Positions 1-11,535 of a DNA stretch of 37,298 nt are shown here, one piece after another. The notes below the pieces were generated by a model that made no database searches, was not told the DNA's origin, and saw nothing but the letters and a program-made list of their open reading frames with translations. Origin of the DNA: a virus. Its lineage: Duplodnaviria; Heunggongvirae; Uroviricota; Caudoviricetes. The stretch lies in IMG/VR virus record IMGVR_UViG_2737471849_000005. One strand, 5' to 3'. Position 1 is the first letter of the stretch, and every line of letters begins with the position of its first letter. Position numbers and translations under genes: made by a program.

Positions 1-1053
1 TTACGGGGTAATGCCAACCGCTGCCGCCACTTTGTCGCCACTTGGCAGCGTTGCCAGAGGATTGAAACGGAGCGCCGTTTCCAGATGATCCGGTGCCAGA
101 TGTGCGTAACGCATAGTCATTTTTATATCGTGGTGTCCGAGAATTTTCTGTAAGGCCAGAATGTTTCCACCCGACATCATGAAGTGCGCCGCAAACGTAT
201 GGCGCAGAACGTGTGTGAGTTGACCGCGAGGGAGCACGATAGACGTTTTTTCCATCACGGATAAAAATTGAAAATAGCAGTCTGTGAAGAAATTGAACCC
301 ATCAAGCGCCATGATCTCTTCGTAAAGCTCTTTACTGATAGGGATGCTTCTGTTTTTCTTCCCCTTCGTTCTGACAAAGGTAATTCGGTATTTGGTCACC
401 TGCGAGCGGGTAAGATTTACGGCTTCACGCCAGCGTGCGCCTGTGCTTAAGCATATCTTAACTACCAGTGCCAGAATTGGGTCCTGACGTTTGCAATCAG
501 CCAGCAATTCAACAATCTGCTCATGGGTAAGCCATGCCATCTCTTTTTCTGCGATGGTGAATTTTCGCATGTTCTCCAGTGGGTTCGGATACGACCATTC
601 GCCCAGACGGGATAGTTCGCTAAAAACACTACTTAGATAGCTTTGCTCCAGGTTAATGGTGACCGGGCTTGCTCCTTTCTTCCATTTCTCGCTGAAGTAG
701 ATCTCGCCTGTCAGGCGTTTATCTCGATAGTGGGCAAACATTTTAGAGGTGAGATCGGTTGCAAGAGGATTGCCTAGAGCGTCAACCATCAGCAGCAATT
801 TGTCATAGACATGCTGTCCAGCAGTCAGAGATTTACCATGTAGTTTGAACCATAGCTCAACCACGTCTTTCAGGGTTCGACGATCCACTGATTCGCCCAG
901 CCAGGGCTTTGATTCGGTTTCTTCCATCGTGTGACGCTCAAAAGCCAGAGCTTCGCCTTTGGTGGCGAATTGTTTACGCACACGACGCCCACTTCGTCCG
1001 GCGGGGTAACATTCGCAAAGCCATTTCCCTGTGGTGAGTTTTCGTACTGCCAT
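1..1053 (-). CDS. int: Tyrosine integrase, P2/186 type
   Basis: The translation from MAVRKLTTGKW onward reads like P2 Int, including the C-terminal ...HVLRHTFA..GG.I..LQ..LGH......Y catalytic region. A GGAGGG RBS precedes the ATG at 1051-1053. The ORF track's 52-aa N-terminal extension is probably not translated. Confidence 0.88.
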   Translation of the reverse strand: MAVRKLTTGKWLCECYPAGRSGRRVRKQFATKGEALAFERHTMEETESKPWLGESVDRRTLKDVVELWFKLHGKSLTAGQHVYDKLLLMVDALGNPLATDLTSKMFAHYRDKRLTGEIYFSEKWKKGASPVTINLEQSYLSSVFSELSRLGEWSYPNPLENMRKFTIAEKEMAWLTHEQIVELLADCKRQDPILALVVKICLSTGARWREAVNLTRSQVTKYRITFVRTKGKKNRSIPISKELYEEIMALDGFNFFTDCYFQFLSVMEKTSIVLPRGQLTHVLRHTFAAHFMMSGGNILALQKILGHHDIKMTMRYAHLAPDHLETALRFNPLATLPSGDKVAAAVGITP

Positions 1054-1241
1054 AAAAAATGCCCTCCAGTAGAGAGCATTTTTACTGTATGTATAACCAG
1101 TGTCAATGTATGAAATCCTACGACCATACATCTCACTGAAGCCATAATGAAGTTGGCTATTCTTTTTGCTATGTGAGCATGTAACTTTTGCGGTTAACCT
1201 GCGGCTCATTTTTATTTTAGACGCAGATATAAAAACAAAAA

Positions 1242-1448: not shown

Positions 1449-2105
1449 CTATTTAACATACTTGACTGTTAAACTTATAATTTTACCAATTATTTCAATG
1501 TCTTCTATCTTGCATTCGAAGGCTCTGTTTCCACCCTCGACGAAGATTCTTCCACCGGGTAAACGAGTAATGTCACGGATCGTTATTTCGCCATCAATAC
1601 TTATTACCCATTTACCATCACGTATATCATCAAATTCTTTATCACAAATAAATTCAGAATTGTTATCTGTGATGACAAAAGGTTTTTTAAACGTAGAGGG
1701 TAGAAATCCCTTATCAAAAATATAAAAACCGTCTTTCTGCAATGCTCCATCAGACAATAAATATTTTTCTACTTCTATAGTATTTGTATTTGCTGATGCT
1801 TGCTTTGAACCATGCCCTGTTGTTAGCCAATTAAGCGAGGTGCCCGTTTCAAGGGCGCACTGGATTACCCAATCTGCTGGAAAAATATCACGCATATAGC
1901 GCGTTGCCATAGTGCTCTTAGAAACACCTAAATGATCACAGAGAGCCTGACGAGTACCGAACCCATATGCTTCAACTAAACGTTCTATGGCTTTCTTACC
2001 GCCGCTATTGAAATCCACAAGTCCTCCAAAGAAATCCAAAATTCGTTGACAGATTCCAAAAGCGATCTTAAAGTTGAACCAGAAGTGTTCTTTTGGAGCC
2101 TTCAC
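1449..2105 (-). CDS. cI: CI-like immunity repressor (186 CI type, HTH N-domain)
   Basis: The translation contains EAYGFG...CALETG.SLNWLTTG and a C-terminal ...RLPGG...ECKIEDIEIIG that resemble phage 186 CI. It is divergent from apl. The exact start is uncertain. Confidence 0.75.
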   Translation of the reverse strand: MKAPKEHFWFNFKIAFGICQRILDFFGGLVDFNSGGKKAIERLVEAYGFGTRQALCDHLGVSKSTMATRYMRDIFPADWVIQCALETGTSLNWLTTGHGSKQASANTNTIEVEKYLLSDGALQKDGFYIFDKGFLPSTFKKPFVITDNNSEFICDKEFDDIRDGKWVISIDGEITIRDITRLPGGRIFVEGGNRAFECKIEDIEIIGKIISLTVKYVK

Positions 2106-4232: not shown

Positions 4233-5086
4233 GCACCATCCTGAAATGGGCGGGAAATAAAACCGCCATTATGTCCGAACTGAAAAAACACCTTCCTGCT
4301 GGCCCGCGACTGGTTGAACCTTTCGCGGGTTCCTGTGCTGTGATGATGGAGACGGATTACCCCAGCTATCTGGTTGCGGATATTAATCCTGATTTAATCA
4401 ACCTCTATAAAAAGGTTGCTGCTGATTGTGAATCGTTTATATCTCGCGCCAGAGTTTTATTTGAGATCGCAAACAGGGAGGTGGCTTATTACAACATAAG
4501 GCAGGAGTTTAATTACTCCACTGAAATTACTGATTTCATGAAAGCGGTATATTTCCTGTATCTCAATCGTCACGGTTACCGTGGTTTATGTCGCTATAAC
4601 AAGAGCGGGCATTTCAACATTCCCTACGGTAATTATAAAAATCCGTATTTCCCTGAAAAAGAAATTCGCGCATTTGCAGAAAAGGCCCAGCGAGCAACGT
4701 TTATCTGCGCCAGCTTTGATGAAACGCTGGCGATGTTGAAGGCGGGGGATGTGGTGTATTGCGATCCGCCGTATGACGGTAAGTTTTCCGGCTATCACAC
4801 TGATGGTTTCACTGAAGATGACCAGTATCACCTGGCATCTGTTCTTGAACATCGGTCATCAGAAGGACATCCGGTCATTGTTTCTAACAGTGACACATCC
4901 CTGATCCGTTCGCTGTATCGCAATTTTACTCATCACTACATCAAGGCAAAACGCAGCATCGGTGTGGCAGCTGGCGAGGGTAAATCAGCAACAGAAATCA
5001 TTGCTGTTTCCGGGCCGCGCTGCTGGGTGGGATTTGATTATTCGCGTGGCGTGGATAGTTCTGCCGTGTACGGAGTACGTGCATGA
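4229..5086 (+). CDS. dam: DNA adenine methyltransferase (Dam-like, GATC type)
   Basis: The translation has the N-terminal [11 protein letters not shown]...PFAGS motif and the DPPY catalytic motif (VYCDPPYDG). Its start overlaps the TraR stop and its stop overlaps the A start (ATGA). Confidence 0.85.
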
Positions 5087-7497
5087 GCCATGCCGATATG
5101 AACAACTGCTGCGGCTTTAACGAGGCTGCCGCATCGTTCTCATGGAACAGCCCGAAAAAGGCCATTAACCCTTATCTGGACCCGGCGGAAGTTGCGCCGG
5201 TTTCTGCACTTTCAAACCTGATCACTCTGTACGCTGTCGATAACGAGCAGGAACAGCTGCGCCGCGAGGCACTGAGTGATCAGGTCTGGGAGCGTTATTT
5301 CTTTAATGAATCCCGTGATCCTGTCCAGCGCGAAATGGAGCAGGATAAGCTCATTAGTCGGGCAAGGCTGGCGCATGAGCAGCAGCGTTTTAATCCAGAT
5401 ATGGTCATTCTGGCGGACGTCAATGCCCAGCCTTCCCATATCAGCAAGCCGCTGATGCAACGTATTGAATACTTCAGCAGCCTTGGCAGGCCAAAGGCTT
5501 ATTCCCGCTATTTGCGTGAGACGATTAAGCCATGTCTGGAACGGCTGGAGCATGTACGCGACAGTCAGCTATCCACTTCTTTTCGCTTTATGGCAAGCCA
5601 TGAAGGGCTGGACGGCCTGCTGATTCTGCCTGAAATGAGTCAGGATCAGGTGAAACGCCTGTCCACCCTTGTTGCTGCGCATATGAGCATGTGCCTTGAT
5701 GCAGCTTGTGGCGATTTGTATGCCACCGATGACGTTAAGCCTGAAGAAATCCGCAAGACATGGGAAAAGGTGGCAGCAGAAACCCTTCGACTGGATGTCA
5801 TACCGCCTGCGTTTGAGCAACTCCGCCGGAAAAGAAACCGCCGTAAACCCGTGCCTTATGAACTCATTCCGGGTTCGCTGGCGCGTATGTTGTGCGCCGA
5901 CTGGTGGTACCGGAAATTATGGAAGATGCGTTGCGAATGGCGGGAAGAGCAGTTGCGTGCTGTTTGCCTGGTCAGCAAAAAAGCATCTCCCTATGTCAGC
6001 TATGAAGCCGTGATGCATAAACGTGAGCAGCGCCGTAAGTCGCTGGAGTTTTTCCGTTCTCATGAACTGGTGAACGAAGACGGCGACACGCTGGACATGG
6101 AGGATGTGGTAAACGCCAGCAGCAGCAACCCTGCGCATCGCCGCAATGAGATGATGGCCTGTGTTAAAGGTCTGGAGCTTATCGCGGAAATGCGTGGTGA
6201 CTGCGCCGTTTTCTACACCATCACCTGTCCGTCACGTTTCCATTCCACGCTAAATAACGGCAGGCCCAACCCGACCTGGACAAATACGACGGTAAGACAA
6301 AGCAGTGATTATCTGGTCGGCATGTTTGCTGCATTTCGTAAGGCGATGCACAAAGCCGGATTGCGCTGGTATGGCGTGCGGGTGGCTGAGCCGCATCATG
6401 ACGGTACAGTTCACTGGCACCTGTTGTGTTTTATGCGCAAAAAAGATCGCCGCGCCATTACTGCTTTGTTGCGTAAGTTTGCCATTCGTGAAGACCGCGA
6501 GGAGCTGGGTAATAACACGGGACCACGCTTTAAGTCTGAGCTGATAAACCCGCGCAAAGGTACGCCAACAAGCTACATCGCGAAATACATCAGTAAGAAC
6601 ATTGACGGGCGTGGTCTGGCTGGCGAGATCAGCAAGGAAACGGGTAAATCCCTGCGTGATAACGCTGAATACGTTAATGCCTGGGCGTCTCTGCATCGTG
6701 TTCAGCAATTCCGCTTCTTTGGCATTCCGGGGCGTCAGGCTTACCGTGAACTGCGATTGCTGGCTGGTCAGGCGGCAAGGCAACAGGGGGACAAAAAAGC
6801 AGGTGCGCCGGTACTGGATAACCCGCGCCTTGATGCAATCCTGGCTGCTGCTGATGCTGGTTGTTTTGCCACCTACATCATGAAGCAGGGCGGCGTACTG
6901 GTTCCCCGCAAATATCACCTCATCAGAACTGCTTATGAAATCAACGAAGAACCGACCGCATATGGCGATCACGGTATTCGTATTTATGGCATCTGGTCAC
7001 CCATTGCAGAGGGCAAGATCTGCACTCATGCGGTGAAGTGGAAAATGGTTCGTAAGGCCGTTGACGTTCAGGAGGCGGCAGCCGACCAGGGCGCTTGCGC
7101 CCCTTGGACTCGTGGCAATAACTGTCCCCTTGCTGAAAATTTGAACCAACAGGAGAAAGATAAATCAGCTGATGGGGACCCCAGAACGGACTTTACCCGC
7201 ATGGATGACAAGGAGTTGCACGATTACCTGCACAGTATGAACAAAAAGGAGCGCCGGGAACTGGCTGCAAGGTTACGTCTGGTGAAACCGAAACGGCGTA
7301 GAGACTACAAACAGCGAATTACAGACCATCAACGACAGCAGCTCGTCTATGAACTGAAATCCAGAGGATTTGATGGCAGCGAGAAAGAGGTCGATTTACT
7401 CCTTCGCGGCGGCAGTATTCCGTCAGGAGCAGGCCTGCGTATCTTCTATCGGAACCAGCGTTTGCAGGAAGATGATCAGTGGCGGAACCTGTATTAA
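5083..7497 (+). CDS. A: Replication initiation protein A (rolling-circle initiator, P2 gpA / 186 A family)
   Basis: An 804-aa ORF at the position of gene A, containing an HWHLL-like motif. Confidence 0.85.
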
Positions 7498-7591
7498 TTA
7501 CGCTGGTTAACAATTCGTGCTCTTAATAATACCAGGCATATCAGGCTGATAAGCGTAAAAAAACGTTTTACATCAGTAAGATTATTATATA

Positions 7592-7607
7592 CTGTAAATA
7601 TAAACAG
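7592..7607 (+). promoter_or_regulatory. LexA (SOS) box CTGT-N8-ACAG overlapping a putative promoter
   Basis: The sequence tactgtaaatataaacagtg at 7590-7609 closely matches the LexA consensus TACTGTATATATATACAGTA. It lies about 45 bp upstream of the ORF at 7650, with a TATACT -10-like hexamer adjacent. Confidence 0.65.
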
Positions 7608-7649
7608 TGGTTATGTATACAGTATTGCTTTGGTGTCATAGGAGGAAAG

Positions 7650-7838
7650 ATGCAGGACTATTTTTTGGAGTCTTTGAAGCTCCAGCGCATTGATTTTTTT
7701 CTTAAGCTTGTAGCGGCTAGTGAGTGTAGTGATGAAGAGAAGGGGCTGGCTCTGCAGTGGGTTTCTGAACTGACAGATGAACTCATGGCAAAAATCAGAA
7801 GCCACGAATACAACCGCTCAATGGATGTCATCAGCTGA
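7650..7838 (+). CDS. Small SOS-controlled protein (62 aa), possibly the N-terminal part of a Tum-like antirepressor
   Basis: An AGGAGG RBS precedes the ATG. It is the first ORF downstream of the LexA box. Confidence 0.5.
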   Translation: MQDYFLESLKLQRIDFFLKLVAASECSDEEKGLALQWVSELTDELMAKIRSHEYNRSMDVIS

Positions 7839-7848
7839 GGTGACTTTT

Positions 7849-8082
7849 ATGCGCATTGAAATAATGATCGATAAAGAGCAGAAGATTAGCCAGTCTACCC
7901 TGGACGCCCTTGAATCCGAGCTTTACCGCAATCTGCGCCCCCTGTATCCCAAAACGGTAATCCGTATCCGTAAAGGTAGCTCTAACGGTGTGGAACTGAC
8001 CGGACTGCAACTGGACGAAGAAAGAAAACAAGTGATGAAAATTATGCAGAAGGTGTGGGAAGACGACAGCTGGCTGCATTGA
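7849..8082 (+). CDS. DinI-like protein (77 aa)
   Basis: The translation MRIEIMIDKEQ...LDALESELYRNL...KIMQKVWEDDSWLH follows the DinI pattern (MRIEV..I.K...ALE.EL.RR...I..I.QE.WE..D.W). Confidence 0.75.
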   Translation: MRIEIMIDKEQKISQSTLDALESELYRNLRPLYPKTVIRIRKGSSNGVELTGLQLDEERKQVMKIMQKVWEDDSWLH

Positions 8083-8195
8083 TTTTGTCAATAGACGCTT
8101 GTTTTTACTAATCAAAAAGGGTTACATATGAGTGAGAGGCGATGTCAATCAGATATCGCCTTGTTTTTTGTCAAGAAAAGAATAATAGGCTAAAA

Positions 8196-8873
8196 ATGAA
8201 AATTAATAATGTAGCGTTACCAATATCTCTTGCTGTAATCCTAACTGGTTGCGTGCCACATGCTTCTAACCGAAATATCACTGCTATTGAAGTGGTGAAG
8301 CCTGCTATTGGGCAAAGTGCTACCGCCTACATGGGCGATCCCATTATCACATCTGCTACTGGATTTAAAACGGACGTACTAGAACTTGGTGCGGCTAATG
8401 GTGCATTGTCTTCTATCGCTGCTGGTACATATTGCAGTGAGGGGAATGGAATTTACCGCAATTATCATAACCCTCAAGCTGTTGCGTTAAAAAATCTCTA
8501 TGGGCAAATCGGTAACTATGTTGATTATGTTAGTTACGATGCTGCAAAAAATGAGATATCACCGCCAAATGGTACTTCTTATACTGCATCAGAAATTTCT
8601 ATCAAACGTGTTCCTGATGGGCTGTGTCGAGTTAGTAACTCATTGGTTAAGACTATCGAATACAATGGAAATGCAGGCGGTGTAATGAAGTTCACCTATC
8701 GTGAATTTGCAAACGATATGGCTCGTGCAGCATTTACAACAGATTTTTCTGTAGATTCTAAGGGAAGTGACGTTATCGCTTACAAAGGTGCCAAGTTCAA
8801 AGTGAACAAGGCTGATAACTCGTCTATTTCTTATACAATTATTTCTGGCTTTGACAAGGCTGTCACGTTCTAG
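8196..8873 (+). CDS. Predicted lipoprotein (226 aa), unknown function
   Basis: The N-terminus MKINNVALPISLAVILTGC carries a lipobox (LTGC). The gene is AT-rich, and the protein is Gly/Ser/Thr-rich and ends in Phe. Confidence 0.6.
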   Translation: MKINNVALPISLAVILTGCVPHASNRNITAIEVVKPAIGQSATAYMGDPIITSATGFKTDVLELGAANGALSSIAAGTYCSEGNGIYRNYHNPQAVALKNLYGQIGNYVDYVSYDAAKNEISPPNGTSYTASEISIKRVPDGLCRVSNSLVKTIEYNGNAGGVMKFTYREFANDMARAAFTTDFSVDSKGSDVIAYKGAKFKVNKADNSSISYTIISGFDKAVTF

Positions 8874-9198: not shown

Positions 9199-11535
9199 AT
9201 GATTGAAGAGGTAGTTATTGACAAAGTAGGCTCATATAATGGCCCTACTCAGCTTTTACATGGGCTTTCTAAATTTAACTATTTATATGGAGCTAATGGT
9301 GCAGGTAAAACAACTATAAGTAAAATTATTAATGACCCTGAACAATATCCAACATGTCCGATTAAATGGAAAAATAATATATCTTTAATAAGCTACGTAT
9401 ATAATAAAGATTTTGTTGAAAGAAATTTTAGTCAAGATAAAATTAAAGGTGTATTTACCCTTGGTAGCGATCTTAAGGAGGATGAAGAGAAACTAATATC
9501 TCTTGAAGAAGAAAAAAATAAGCTAATAGAATCTATTATAGCAAAGGAAAAGCTAATAGATGGTGGTGATAATATATTAGGCGTTGTTAAACAAATCGAA
9601 GACCATGAAAAATCTTTTAAAGATTCATGTTGGAAGCAAAAAGTAAAACATGATAATGTGTTCTCAAAGGCTTTTGAGGGATTAAGGAATAGTAGTGAAA
9701 AATTTAAAGCTAGAGTGTTGGCTGAGTATGAAAATAACACATCAGAAGTTTGCTCAATAGCAGAGCTAATTGAGAAAGCAAAAATTGTTTTTTCTACTGA
9801 ATTGACATCACATGTATCAATTACAATTCCATCCTTCAATGGGATAGATGATATTTTGAGTAGGGAGATTTGGAGTGAGCGTATTCTAGGGAAAAAAGAC
9901 GTTAGTGTTTCAGACTTAATTACAATGCTCAATAACAGTGATTGGGTTAAGGAAGGTTTAACATATTTCAGTAAATCTAATCCCAAGTGCCCATTCTGCC
10001 AGCAGGATGTAAATGATAATATATTTGATAATCTATCATCATATTTTGATAAAACATATGAGTTAAAAAAAAGAGAAATCGATGCATTGGTTTTACAATA
10101 TGAACATCAACTTAATAATATCTTGCAGGCGATAGATGATATAAGGGCGATTAAATCTCCATTCATAAATTATGAAGTATTTGAGGATAAGGCTAAGATA
10201 GTATTATCTGAATTAAACAAGAATTTTGAATTGGCAAAAAATAAACGCAATTTTTTAAGTGAATCAGTTCATTTTAGTGACTTAAGTGAAGTTGTTGATG
10301 ATTTTATTTCTTTTTTGAATGATTCAAATCTATTGATAGATAATAATAACAAAATACACAGTAATAGAAAGGTAGAGGCTAGTAATCTTTCTAATCAGAT
10401 ATGGGCATATATCGTAAAGGTGGAGTTAAAGTCTGAAATAACTTCTTACCGTAGCGAATCTGATAAATTTAATAGGAAGTTACAAGGACTTAAATCTGGG
10501 TTAGAGGAAGACAAAAAGAAGTTAATGTTAAATGCTTCGGCTATTGAGGCAATTGAGTCTAATAAAACCAGTACTCTTCCAACTATTACAAAAATTAACA
10601 AGATTCTGGATTCTTATGGCTTCAAAAATTTTTACTTAAAACCCTCCGAAGATAAAAAGCATTATATGATAGTGAGAGATAGTGGAGATAATGCTCGTAC
10701 AACCCTTAGCGAGGGAGAAAAGACATTTATCACTTTTTTGTATTTTTATAGCCTTGTTAGAGGGAGTGATAATGCATCAGGTGTTTTAGATGATCGTGTT
10801 GTAGTATTTGATGATCCAATTTCAAGTTTAGATAGTGATATTCTGTTTATTGTAAGTTCGTTGATTAAAGATTTAATGGAGGATGTTCGTAAGGATGAAG
10901 GAAATATTAAGCAAATTATATTCCTTACACATAATATTTATTTTCATAAAGAGTTGACTTTTAATACTAAAAGATCCGGTAATCAAGCAATGAAAGAGGA
11001 GACTTTTTGGATTGTAAGGAAAAAAGGGAAGGTCTCATATCTTGAAAAGTGCGAATCAAACCCAATAAAAACGTCTTATGATTTGCTCTGGTGCGAATTG
11101 AGAAGAACAGATATTAATAATAATACTATACAAAATACAATGCGAAGGATTTTGGAGAATTACTTTAAGATATTAGGTGGGATGGATATTAGGAAGCTTG
11201 AATGTCATTTTTATGGTGATGAAAAAATCATATTTAAATCTTTAGTGTCATGGATTAATGATGGTTCTCATTTTGCAGGTGATGATCTTTATATGAATTT
11301 AGATACGGAGTCTGTGCAAAAATATTTAATTGTTTTTCAGAAGATATTTGAGTGTAGTGAGCATACTGCCCATTACAAAATGATGATGGGTGAGTTTTAT
11401 AGACCGTTAAATGAGTCACTTCATCTACAAGATGAGTTTGATATTGATGATAGTGCGAATGATGAGTATGCTTCGTCAAAAATTGAGATAGAAGATGGAA
11501 TAAACACATCTCTACATAGCAATACATATTTGTAA
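9199..11535 (+). CDS. ABC/Rad50-like ATPase (778 aa), RloC/PrrC-like; candidate anti-phage defence protein
   Basis: The translation has Walker A GANGAGKTT, ABC-signature-like LSEGEK, Walker B/D-loop VVVFDDPISSLD and H-loop FLTHN. A long Lys/Glu-rich insert contains CPFC. The C-terminal region has RRILE (R-x3-E) and RKLECH (R-x4-H). The gene is very AT-rich. Confidence 0.7.
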   Translation: MIEEVVIDKVGSYNGPTQLLHGLSKFNYLYGANGAGKTTISKIINDPEQYPTCPIKWKNNISLISYVYNKDFVERNFSQDKIKGVFTLGSDLKEDEEKLISLEEEKNKLIESIIAKEKLIDGGDNILGVVKQIEDHEKSFKDSCWKQKVKHDNVFSKAFEGLRNSSEKFKARVLAEYENNTSEVCSIAELIEKAKIVFSTELTSHVSITIPSFNGIDDILSREIWSERILGKKDVSVSDLITMLNNSDWVKEGLTYFSKSNPKCPFCQQDVNDNIFDNLSSYFDKTYELKKREIDALVLQYEHQLNNILQAIDDIRAIKSPFINYEVFEDKAKIVLSELNKNFELAKNKRNFLSESVHFSDLSEVVDDFISFLNDSNLLIDNNNKIHSNRKVEASNLSNQIWAYIVKVELKSEITSYRSESDKFNRKLQGLKSGLEEDKKKLMLNASAIEAIESNKTSTLPTITKINKILDSYGFKNFYLKPSEDKKHYMIVRDSGDNARTTLSEGEKTFITFLYFYSLVRGSDNASGVLDDRVVVFDDPISSLDSDILFIVSSLIKDLMEDVRKDEGNIKQIIFLTHNIYFHKELTFNTKRSGNQAMKEETFWIVRKKGKVSYLEKCESNPIKTSYDLLWCELRRTDINNNTIQNTMRRILENYFKILGGMDIRKLECHFYGDEKIIFKSLVSWINDGSHFAGDDLYMNLDTESVQKYLIVFQKIFECSEHTAHYKMMMGEFYRPLNESLHLQDEFDIDDSANDEYASSKIEIEDGINTSLHSNTYL

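Follow-up and report, generated by a model that had tools for sequence, protein, structure and literature searches.

A two-gene tum-type operon that very probably directs SOS induction of a Fels-2-like prophage

Introduction

Directly downstream of replication gene A, in the place that tum occupies in phage 186, the prophage analysed here carries two short open reading frames behind a LexA box. The question raised by this locus is whether they represent a natural two-gene form of tum, a tum gene broken by a frameshift, or two frames joined by programmed frameshifting. In phage 186 the SOS response derepresses the LexA-controlled promoter p95, and Tum then sequesters CI reversibly and prevents it from binding its operators (PMC7708051). 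Lemire et al. 2011 (PMC3121763) liken Tum to a fusion of an antirepressor with DinI. The same paper describes tum as split in two in Fels-2 and PSP3, citing Bunny, Liu & Roth 2002 on the split and a personal communication of G. Christie for the upstream PSP3 gene being the antirepressor (PMC3121763). The three readings go back to an original prediction made from the letters of the window, that is, the whole stretch of 37,298 nucleotides of viral DNA that was analysed. It proposed a LexA-controlled, possibly split tum-type module and described 186 Tum as a protein of about 146 aa with a DinI-like C-terminal half, a description that agrees with the 186 record and with the alignment given below.

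Very probably, the region is the operon through which SOS induces a Fels-2-like prophage (186-type, P2-family), and it has the natural two-gene form. This reading draws on the sequence features of the locus, the homologies of its two products, the purifying selection acting on both genes and the conservation of the two-gene arrangement, all documented below. The split tum of Fels-2 and PsP3 is already published and annotated, the general picture having been in print since 2002-2011, and the window is another copy of this known system.

Results

Prophage setting and the CI repressor

The 37 kb window represents a prophage of the P2 family, 186/Fels-2 type, and the genes preceding the module are as follows.

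1-1209, minus strand: integrase
1449-2105, minus strand: CI immunity repressor of the 186 type (Pfam Phage_CI_repr, E 3e-31, and Phage_CI_C, E 5e-29)
between CI and gene A: an Apl-like gene, cII (Phage_CP76) and a Dam methylase
5083-7497: replication gene A (Phage_GPA, E 4e-127)

The CI of the window is 33% identical to 186 CI, and the two share the same Pfam architecture. On the window protein the Peptidase_S24 model scored 16.1 bits, under its cut-off of 23.3, and as CI lacks a recognisable S24 autocleavage domain, its destruction by RecA would not be expected. By analogy with 186, it is this CI that is the predicted target of the first product of the operon.

A double LexA box over the candidate promoter

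Three elements precede the first gene of the module.

7567-7572, plus strand: candidate -35 hexamer TTTACA of the SOS promoter, putative counterpart of 186 p95, assigned by analogy
7590-7609, plus strand: LexA box 1, TACTGTAAATATAAACAGTG, 20 nt, overlapping the candidate -10
7605-7624, plus strand: LexA box 2, CAGTGGTTATGTATACAGTA, overlapping box 1 by 5 nt in the manner of a colicin-type double SOS operator

The near-consensus LexA operator that had been predicted is present as box 1, which departs from the 20-nt consensus TACTGTATATATATACAGTA at 3 positions. It is the sole site of this quality in the 37 kb, and none of 100 shuffled sequences yielded one. The bare CTGT-N8-ACAG core is not significant alone, being found in 46 of the 100 shuffles. 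A LexA box lies in the equivalent place in Fels-2, 186, PsP3, ESSI-2, ENT90 and the Yersinia phages, and the placement of box 1 matches the annotated LexA site of 186 p95. In the candidate promoter TTTACA is followed after 17 nt by TACTGT (7590-7595) inside box 1. The 186 record gives p95 as TTCACA, 18 nt and TACTGT in the LexA box, where the first six bases of the site form the -10. The TTTACA hexamer is kept in the Fels-2-like relatives; the promoter hexamers of the window were not called by a consensus scan, and their assignment is by analogy with 186 p95.

Box 2 had no part in the original prediction. Its left half reads GTGG instead of CTGT. When the promoter region was compared by BLAST with plasmids, small Col plasmids were returned, and the two-box block (approximately 7591-7628) aligned with the operators directly upstream of the colicin N and pesticin genes. 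The match with the operators upstream of cna and pst is base for base, the CAGTGGTTAT junction included. Alignment and pattern search both give two overlapping boxes that share a CAGTGG junction, the hallmark of a colicin-type double operator. Unlike the colicin and pesticin operators, that of the window is predicted to drive a prophage antirepressor, and, as in 186, its candidate -10 falls within box 1 and not upstream. The double box is kept in six Fels-2-like relatives, and Fels-2 has both boxes, whereas 186 and PsP3 have a single LexA box. A limited literature search found no published mention of a double box in Fels-2-type phages. From its sequence, LexA would be expected to bind both boxes, and the likeness to colicin operators predicts a tight and late induction in a subpopulation of cells.

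The first gene product and the N-terminus of Tum

The two genes, called tumA (ORF1) and tumB (ORF2) here, and their ribosome-binding sites are arranged as follows.

7640-7645, plus strand: Shine-Dalgarno sequence AGGAGG of tumA, read from the sequence; AGGAGG in the relatives too
7650-7838, plus strand: tumA-like gene with ATG start, encoding a predicted antirepressor of 62 aa with homology to the Tum N-terminus
7837-7842, plus strand: Shine-Dalgarno sequence GAGGTG of tumB, overlapping the tumA stop codon, read from the sequence
7849-8082, plus strand: tumB-like gene encoding a DinI-family protein of 77 aa, its ATG start backed by homology

Both frames had been foreseen, one of 62 aa and a DinI-like one of 77 aa. 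Their alignment to 186 Tum, proposed as a check, was positive for ORF2 (41% identity) and divided for ORF1, where direct BLASTP gave no alignment and the profile comparison gave one. A chain of pairwise similarity runs through Yersinia phage YenM_324, whose small LexA-boxed ORF is 30% identical to ORF1 (BLASTP, E 3e-9) and 45% identical to the Tum N-terminus of 186 (BLASTP, E 2e-13). A profile of the ORF1 family, made of 26 diverse members obtained from a search of 1.84 billion representatives, matched 186 Tum with residues 3-45 on residues 3-45 at a probability of 95.2% (hhalign, E 2.6e-8). It also matched the 186/ENT90/PsP3 TumA alignment at 95.7% (hhalign). Identity between ORF1 and the Tum N-terminus is approximately 19% over 43 residues. 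By way of profile and intermediate, then, ORF1 is homologous to the N-terminus of Tum over about 43 residues. The absence of any similarity to this N-terminus, named beforehand as an observation that would speak against a tum-type module, was found in pairwise BLASTP only and not at the profile level.

The motif common to TumA and Tum is approximately h-E-x-h-x-L-Q/E-R-I-x-h-h-x-R/K-L-h-A-x(3)-C-x(3)-D/E-K/R-x-h-A-L-x-W-h-x-E-L. BLASTP gives no alignment of PsP3 TumA with that of the window; PsP3 TumA aligns with 186 and ENT90 in the alignment that the family profile hits. The AlphaFold model of TumA is a helical hairpin (pLDDT 86.8) with helices at residues 2-23 and 28-61. A Foldseek search of the PDB with this model gave generic helical hairpins only, none at E <= 0.001, and a sequence search of the PDB with the TumA family profile returned nothing.

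Pairing of TumA with divergent CI repressors

An immunity-specific pair, in which TumA would co-vary with the whole of CI, was considered and rejected, TumA being 97-98% identical where CI is 39-58% identical. More exactly, the identity of TumA is 96.8-98.4% in phages with a CI that shares no more than 39-58% identity with that of the window, and 58% is the best identity of the window CI to any phage CI in the collection. Fels-2 differs from the window in this respect: over the full length its CI shares 39% identity with the window CI, and over the N-terminal domain 71%.

An alignment of 14 CI proteins was used to compare the two domains. Among the CIs paired with this type of TumA, the N-terminal DNA-binding domain is 70-82% identical to that of the window (61-98% over all pairs), and the C-terminal domain only 24-42% (22-90% over all pairs). 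The N-terminal motif SKST-x-A-x-R-x(2)-RD-x-FPA-x-W-x-I-x-C-x-LETG is invariant in the group. In phages with other types of TumA the CI N-terminal domain is 35-58% identical to that of the window, with the exception of ESSI2_ev129 at 68%. The identity of TumA to that of the window follows the identity of the CI N-terminal domain (Spearman coefficient 0.97) and not that of the C-terminal domain (0.14; n=11 phages, the points being few and phylogenetically non-independent). This tracking of the N-terminal domain suggests that TumA contacts the DNA-binding domain of CI, a lead rather than a result, and in the prophage of the window TumA is likewise taken to contact CI from sequence comparison.

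The same figures may be read as a mismatch, in which mosaic recombination has left an intact LexA-controlled operon beside a heteroimmune CI that TumA cannot neutralise. As with P2, SOS would in that case induce the prophage poorly or not at all, and the main targets of the operon would be other prophages in the same cell or, through TumB, RecA. Such a mismatch is unlikely, and it has several observations in its favour: the near-identity of TumA (96.8-98.4%) in phages whose CI is 39-58% identical to that of the window, the block from gene A to tumB, which keeps 97-98% DNA identity across the phages with this TumA while the immunity region differs, and the trans-acting antirepressors documented for the Gifsy and Fels-1 prophages (PMC3121763). 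Two results argue in the opposite direction. The N-terminal domain of CI stays at 70-82% identity wherever this type of TumA is found, which fits a conserved docking surface, and in all these backgrounds purifying selection on both genes is strong.

Within the preferred reading of a functional SOS-induction operon, a wider role is conceivable and is put forward tentatively. TumA of the Fels-2 type may be a broad-range antirepressor that docks on the conserved N-terminal DNA-binding domain common to many 186-type CIs that are heteroimmune in other respects, and that cross-induces different P2-family prophages within one cell, with the double operator giving a tight, late and bistable SOS output.

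A further alternative, and a quite improbable one, is that ORF1 is not an antirepressor, and instead an unrelated small protein riding with a phage dinI-like SOS modulator in a prophage that is induced otherwise. ORF1 indeed falls in no curated family (there is no match in Pfam, NCBIfam or PADLOC, and PHROGs places it in phrog_698, 'unknown function'), a 'levan regulatory' label stands in some records, and the BLASTP comparison with Tum is empty. Yet the profile and transitive homology link it to the Tum N-terminus. Moreover, every member examined lies behind a LexA box, after gene A and together with a 186-type CI, whether or not a DinI gene is present, and the homologous position of PsP3 is annotated as tumA, 'UV induction of prophage'. 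In the literature, a search on the two gene names gave unrelated papers only.

Two genes rather than one

The SOS-induction operon of the window does not encode a single fused polypeptide of about 146 aa as that of 186 does. Two adjacent, co-oriented genes, a small one and then a DinI-like one, stand behind one putative LexA-controlled promoter, which is the split form known from PsP3 and Fels-2. The two frames had been described as overlapping at 7777-7838, and this part of the original prediction has to be corrected. The apparent overlap arises because the ORF2 frame is open upstream and holds an in-frame ATG at 7777, where the mechanical ORF (7777-8082) begins. The real genes do not overlap: tumA ends with TGA at 7836-7838, and after a spacer of 10 nt tumB starts with ATG at 7849. 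The ORF2 frame is +1 relative to ORF1 and open for 75 nt upstream of its ATG.

The layout of stop codon, spacer, ribosome-binding site and ATG recurs in Fels-2, SopEPhi, SEN8, a Yersinia pestis phage and Klebsiella phages, and two separate CDS are annotated in Fels-2, SopEPhi, SEN8 and others. At the position of the tumB Shine-Dalgarno sequence the relatives have AGGGAAT, AGGGGAAT or GGGGAAT. Their spacers measure 10, 11 or 12 nt, so that the frame of tumB relative to tumA is +1, +2 or 0. Upstream of the ATG, stops shut the extended ORF2 frame of the relatives after 12-42 nt. The module is 97% identical to that of Fels-2 at the DNA level. Read in their own frames, both genes show strong purifying selection, with dN/dS of 0.07-0.08 for tumA and 0.07-0.09 for tumB at dS of about 0.8-1.4. 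Among 67 representatives of the TumA family, nearly all of 50-100 aa, none was a fused form of about 140 aa. The module occurs in 1125 of 5426 complete E. coli genomes, and a LexA box with tumA and without any DinI gene is found in ESSI-2, ENT90 and YenM_324.

Programmed +1 frameshifting or stop codon read-through, which would add a fused, 186-like Tum to the separate products, is very improbable. Both frames are open over 7774-7838, and in PsP3 and Yersinia phage MLG42 tumA and tumB are in one frame with a TAG between them, so that read-through is conceivable there. In the window, however, the stop is TGA and the offset +1, no canonical slippery heptamer was seen in 7774-7838, and a -1 slip would miss the ORF2 frame. 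The relatives have a relative frame of +1, +2 or 0 with the ORF2 extension stopped 12-42 nt upstream, and a conserved frame, a slippery sequence and an overlap open in relatives, as expected of a programmed frameshift site, are not what is found. A hairpin at 7827-7844, which would sequester the ribosome-binding site of tumB, is not significant (z = -1.6) and not conserved.

The least probable reading, that an indel or a sequencing error at 7770-7850 disrupted a 186-like fused tum and left the prophage non-inducible, can appeal to the single 146-aa gene of 186 and its close relatives and to the +1 frame of ORF2 with its 75 open nucleotides, and is already refuted by the comparative sequence data: the same layout in Fels-2, SopEPhi, SEN8, the Yersinia and Klebsiella phages and PsP3 with spacers of 3, 10, 11 or 12 nt, the 1125 E. 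coli genomes that carry the module, dN/dS of 0.07-0.09, fusion in 0 of 67 representatives, and the existence of TumA-only phages with no DinI gene.

Taken together, the separate ribosome-binding sites, the shifting frame, the closed extensions, the low dN/dS, the lack of fused forms and the wide occurrence exclude both a pseudogene and programmed frameshifting. Of the three variants that had been proposed, only the natural two-gene version survives. A split between the small gene and the DinI-like gene is normal and hence no sign of a dead prophage.

TumB and the region downstream

TumB scores 81.3 bits with Pfam DinI (PF06183, E 6.6e-23), above the gathering threshold of 24.2 and over the full profile (positions 1-63 of 63), and aligns end to end with residues 71-145 of 186 Tum (41% identity, E 3e-24), and it is 78% identical to TumB of PsP3. 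With E. coli DinI (structure 1GHH, E 2.7e-6) it shares the Pfam family, the length and a full-length alignment. With the NCBIfam equivalog for host DinI, NF007893, it scores 42.7 bits, under the cut-off of 111, which places TumB among the phage DinI-like paralogues and sets it apart from the host orthologue.

Two features follow tumB.

8136-8172, plus strand: terminator-like hairpin (8136-8162) with an 11-bp stem, then a T run (U-tract in the transcript), in the place of 186 t95a
8196-8873, plus strand: possible third gene of the operon, reached by read-through, encoding a lipoprotein-like protein of 225 aa with signal and lipobox MKINNVALPISLAVILTGC

The hairpin has a folding energy of -16.7 kcal/mol (z = -4.2), and none of 200 shuffles was equally stable. 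The lipoprotein-like gene probably starts with the ATG at 8196. Its product belongs to phrog_1353, 'unknown function' (E 3e-105), and its counterpart in Fels-2 is STM2726. An equal mechanical ORF length (243 aa) had led to the expectation that it would be the homologue of 186 orf97, and the two are not homologous.

Discussion

Comparison with known systems

In 186 the order given by the record is p95, tum (146 aa), the partial terminator t95a and orf97. The window resembles it in having a LexA box over a promoter after gene A, an antirepressor segment (here a predicted one) followed by a DinI-like segment, and a terminator next. The two differ in that 186 makes one polypeptide of 146 aa with internal starts behind a single LexA box, whereas the window has two genes and two boxes, and the gene downstream of the terminator is not homologous to orf97. 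Even in the fused tum, one of these internal starts, a GTG after AGGAGG, is annotated as giving a DinI-like 'truncated Tum' of 77 aa, said there to be a product that 'modulates SOS induction'.

PsP3 and Fels-2 (STM2728 / STM2726.1) share the two-gene layout, and Fels-2 also has both LexA boxes. The PsP3 annotation names a tumA of 60 aa ('UV induction of prophage') and a tumB of 77 aa. Unlike those of the window, its genes lie in one frame and are split by a TAG and one codon behind the single LexA box, and its TumA is without detectable BLASTP similarity to that of the window. In Fels-2, STM2727 was induced 5.5-14.8-fold by a DNA-damaging mutagen, and STM2726-STM2727-STM2728 were grouped as a co-regulated operon (PMC2225428). 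STM2727 is equated with the DinI-like gene on account of its number and position; in the phage record this CDS is called STM2726.1.Fels2.

Gifsy-1, -2 and -3 and Fels-1 (gfoA, gftA, fsoA) likewise carry an operon under LexA repression that encodes a DinI homologue together with a small antirepressor, which binds a non-cleavable repressor and thereby inactivates it (PMC3121763). These systems differ from the window in that dinI comes first and in that the repressors and backbones are lambdoid and unrelated.

Proposed course of induction

What the operon would do is drawn by analogy from the literature on close relatives, namely the induction of Fels-2 by DNA damage, the antirepressor of PSP3 and the mechanism of 186 Tum. 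In the lysogen, LexA bound to the double operator over the -10 and start region would keep tumA and tumB silent. DNA damage would activate RecA, LexA would cleave itself and the operon would be transcribed. TumA, the predicted helical hairpin of 62 aa, would then bind CI, probably at its N-terminal DNA-binding domain, and block operator binding, so that the lytic promoter fires. TumB, translated separately, would bind RecA filaments as DinI does and adjust how strong the SOS signal is or how long it lasts, a role assigned to it by analogy. The terminator after tumB would stop most transcripts, and read-through may express the lipoprotein-like gene.

Implications

The occurrence of one near-invariant TumA with several divergent CIs raises the matter of cross-induction between P2-family prophages. 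Like the colicin-type operator, this is a modest lead that leaves the general interpretation as it is. An annotation question is settled: the 62-aa gene, which many records enter as 'hypothetical' or 'levan regulatory protein', is the likely SOS antirepressor of a type of prophage that is found in about one fifth of complete E. coli genomes.

The tum module and CI in related phages

The 186-type phages ESSI2_ev015, ESSI-2, ENT90 and YenM_324 (records L004-L007) carry a LexA box and a tumA-like gene without a DinI-like gene, and therefore three layouts of the tum genes exist: fused in 186, split in PsP3, Fels-2 and the window, and tumA only. TumA (7650-7838, + strand), the predicted antirepressor, is 97-98% identical in phages whose CI shares only 39-58% identity with the immunity repressor of the window (1449-2105, − strand). 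The conservation of CI resides mostly in the N-terminal DNA-binding domain, which is 70-82% identical to that of the window, and it is this domain and not the C-terminal domain that the similarity of TumA follows.

In TumA of Escherichia phage 500465-1 (L012, 1201-1389) the stretch ...EERGWLCSGVSELT... is found in place of ...EEKGLALQWVSELT..., which is present in all others. The altered stretch has the appearance of two frameshifts that compensate each other and that may be errors of assembly; the record is unannotated.

Predicted double LexA operator and tumA-tumB junction

7605-7624, predicted LexA box 2, overlapping box 1 at 7590-7609
7827-7844, weak hairpin (GTCATC/GGTGAC) whose loop contains the stop codon of tumA and whose 3′ arm includes the ribosome-binding site of tumB

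The second LexA box is kept in Fels-2-like phages, whereas 186 and PsP3 are without it. Taken together, the two boxes make up a block that differs very little from the double SOS operator preceding the genes for colicin N and pesticin on small Col plasmids. In ESSI2_ev129 (L026, 1038-1057) a LexA-box-like 20-mer with 3 mismatches to the consensus is located in the gap that runs from the cI end to the int start; the window has no counterpart.

The placing of the tumA stop and the tumB ribosome-binding site in the hairpin would suggest translational coupling, but as a coupling element it was rejected, being not statistically unusual (z = −1.6) and differing in sequence at the junction of relatives.

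Neighbouring genes

1242-1433, − strand, cysteine-rich ORF of 63 aa with a signal-peptide-like N-terminus, between the integrase and cI genes
8196-8873, + strand, lipoprotein-like gene with signal MKINNVALPISLAVILTGC, phrog_1353 (unknown function)
9199-11535, + strand, AAA_13 ATPase of 778 aa, matching PDC-S06, a candidate defence family of PADLOC (E 1.5e-266)

The cysteine-rich ORF, which had no match in Pfam, is probably a small secreted moron, and PsP3 has a DUF2511 gene in its place. The lipoprotein-like gene is separated from tumB by a strong predicted terminator (8136-8162) and occupies the position held in 186 by orf97. Homology to orf97 was dismissed, since the proteins are unrelated even though the mechanical ORF 8142-8873 equals orf97 in length (243 aa). 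The AAA_13 ATPase, which resembles LmuB, PrrC and AriA less strongly than it does PDC-S06, is encoded by a cargo gene with the SOS operon on one side and the late genes on the other; at the equivalent site, upstream of the portal gene Q, Fels-2 instead holds a hypothetical gene without a name.
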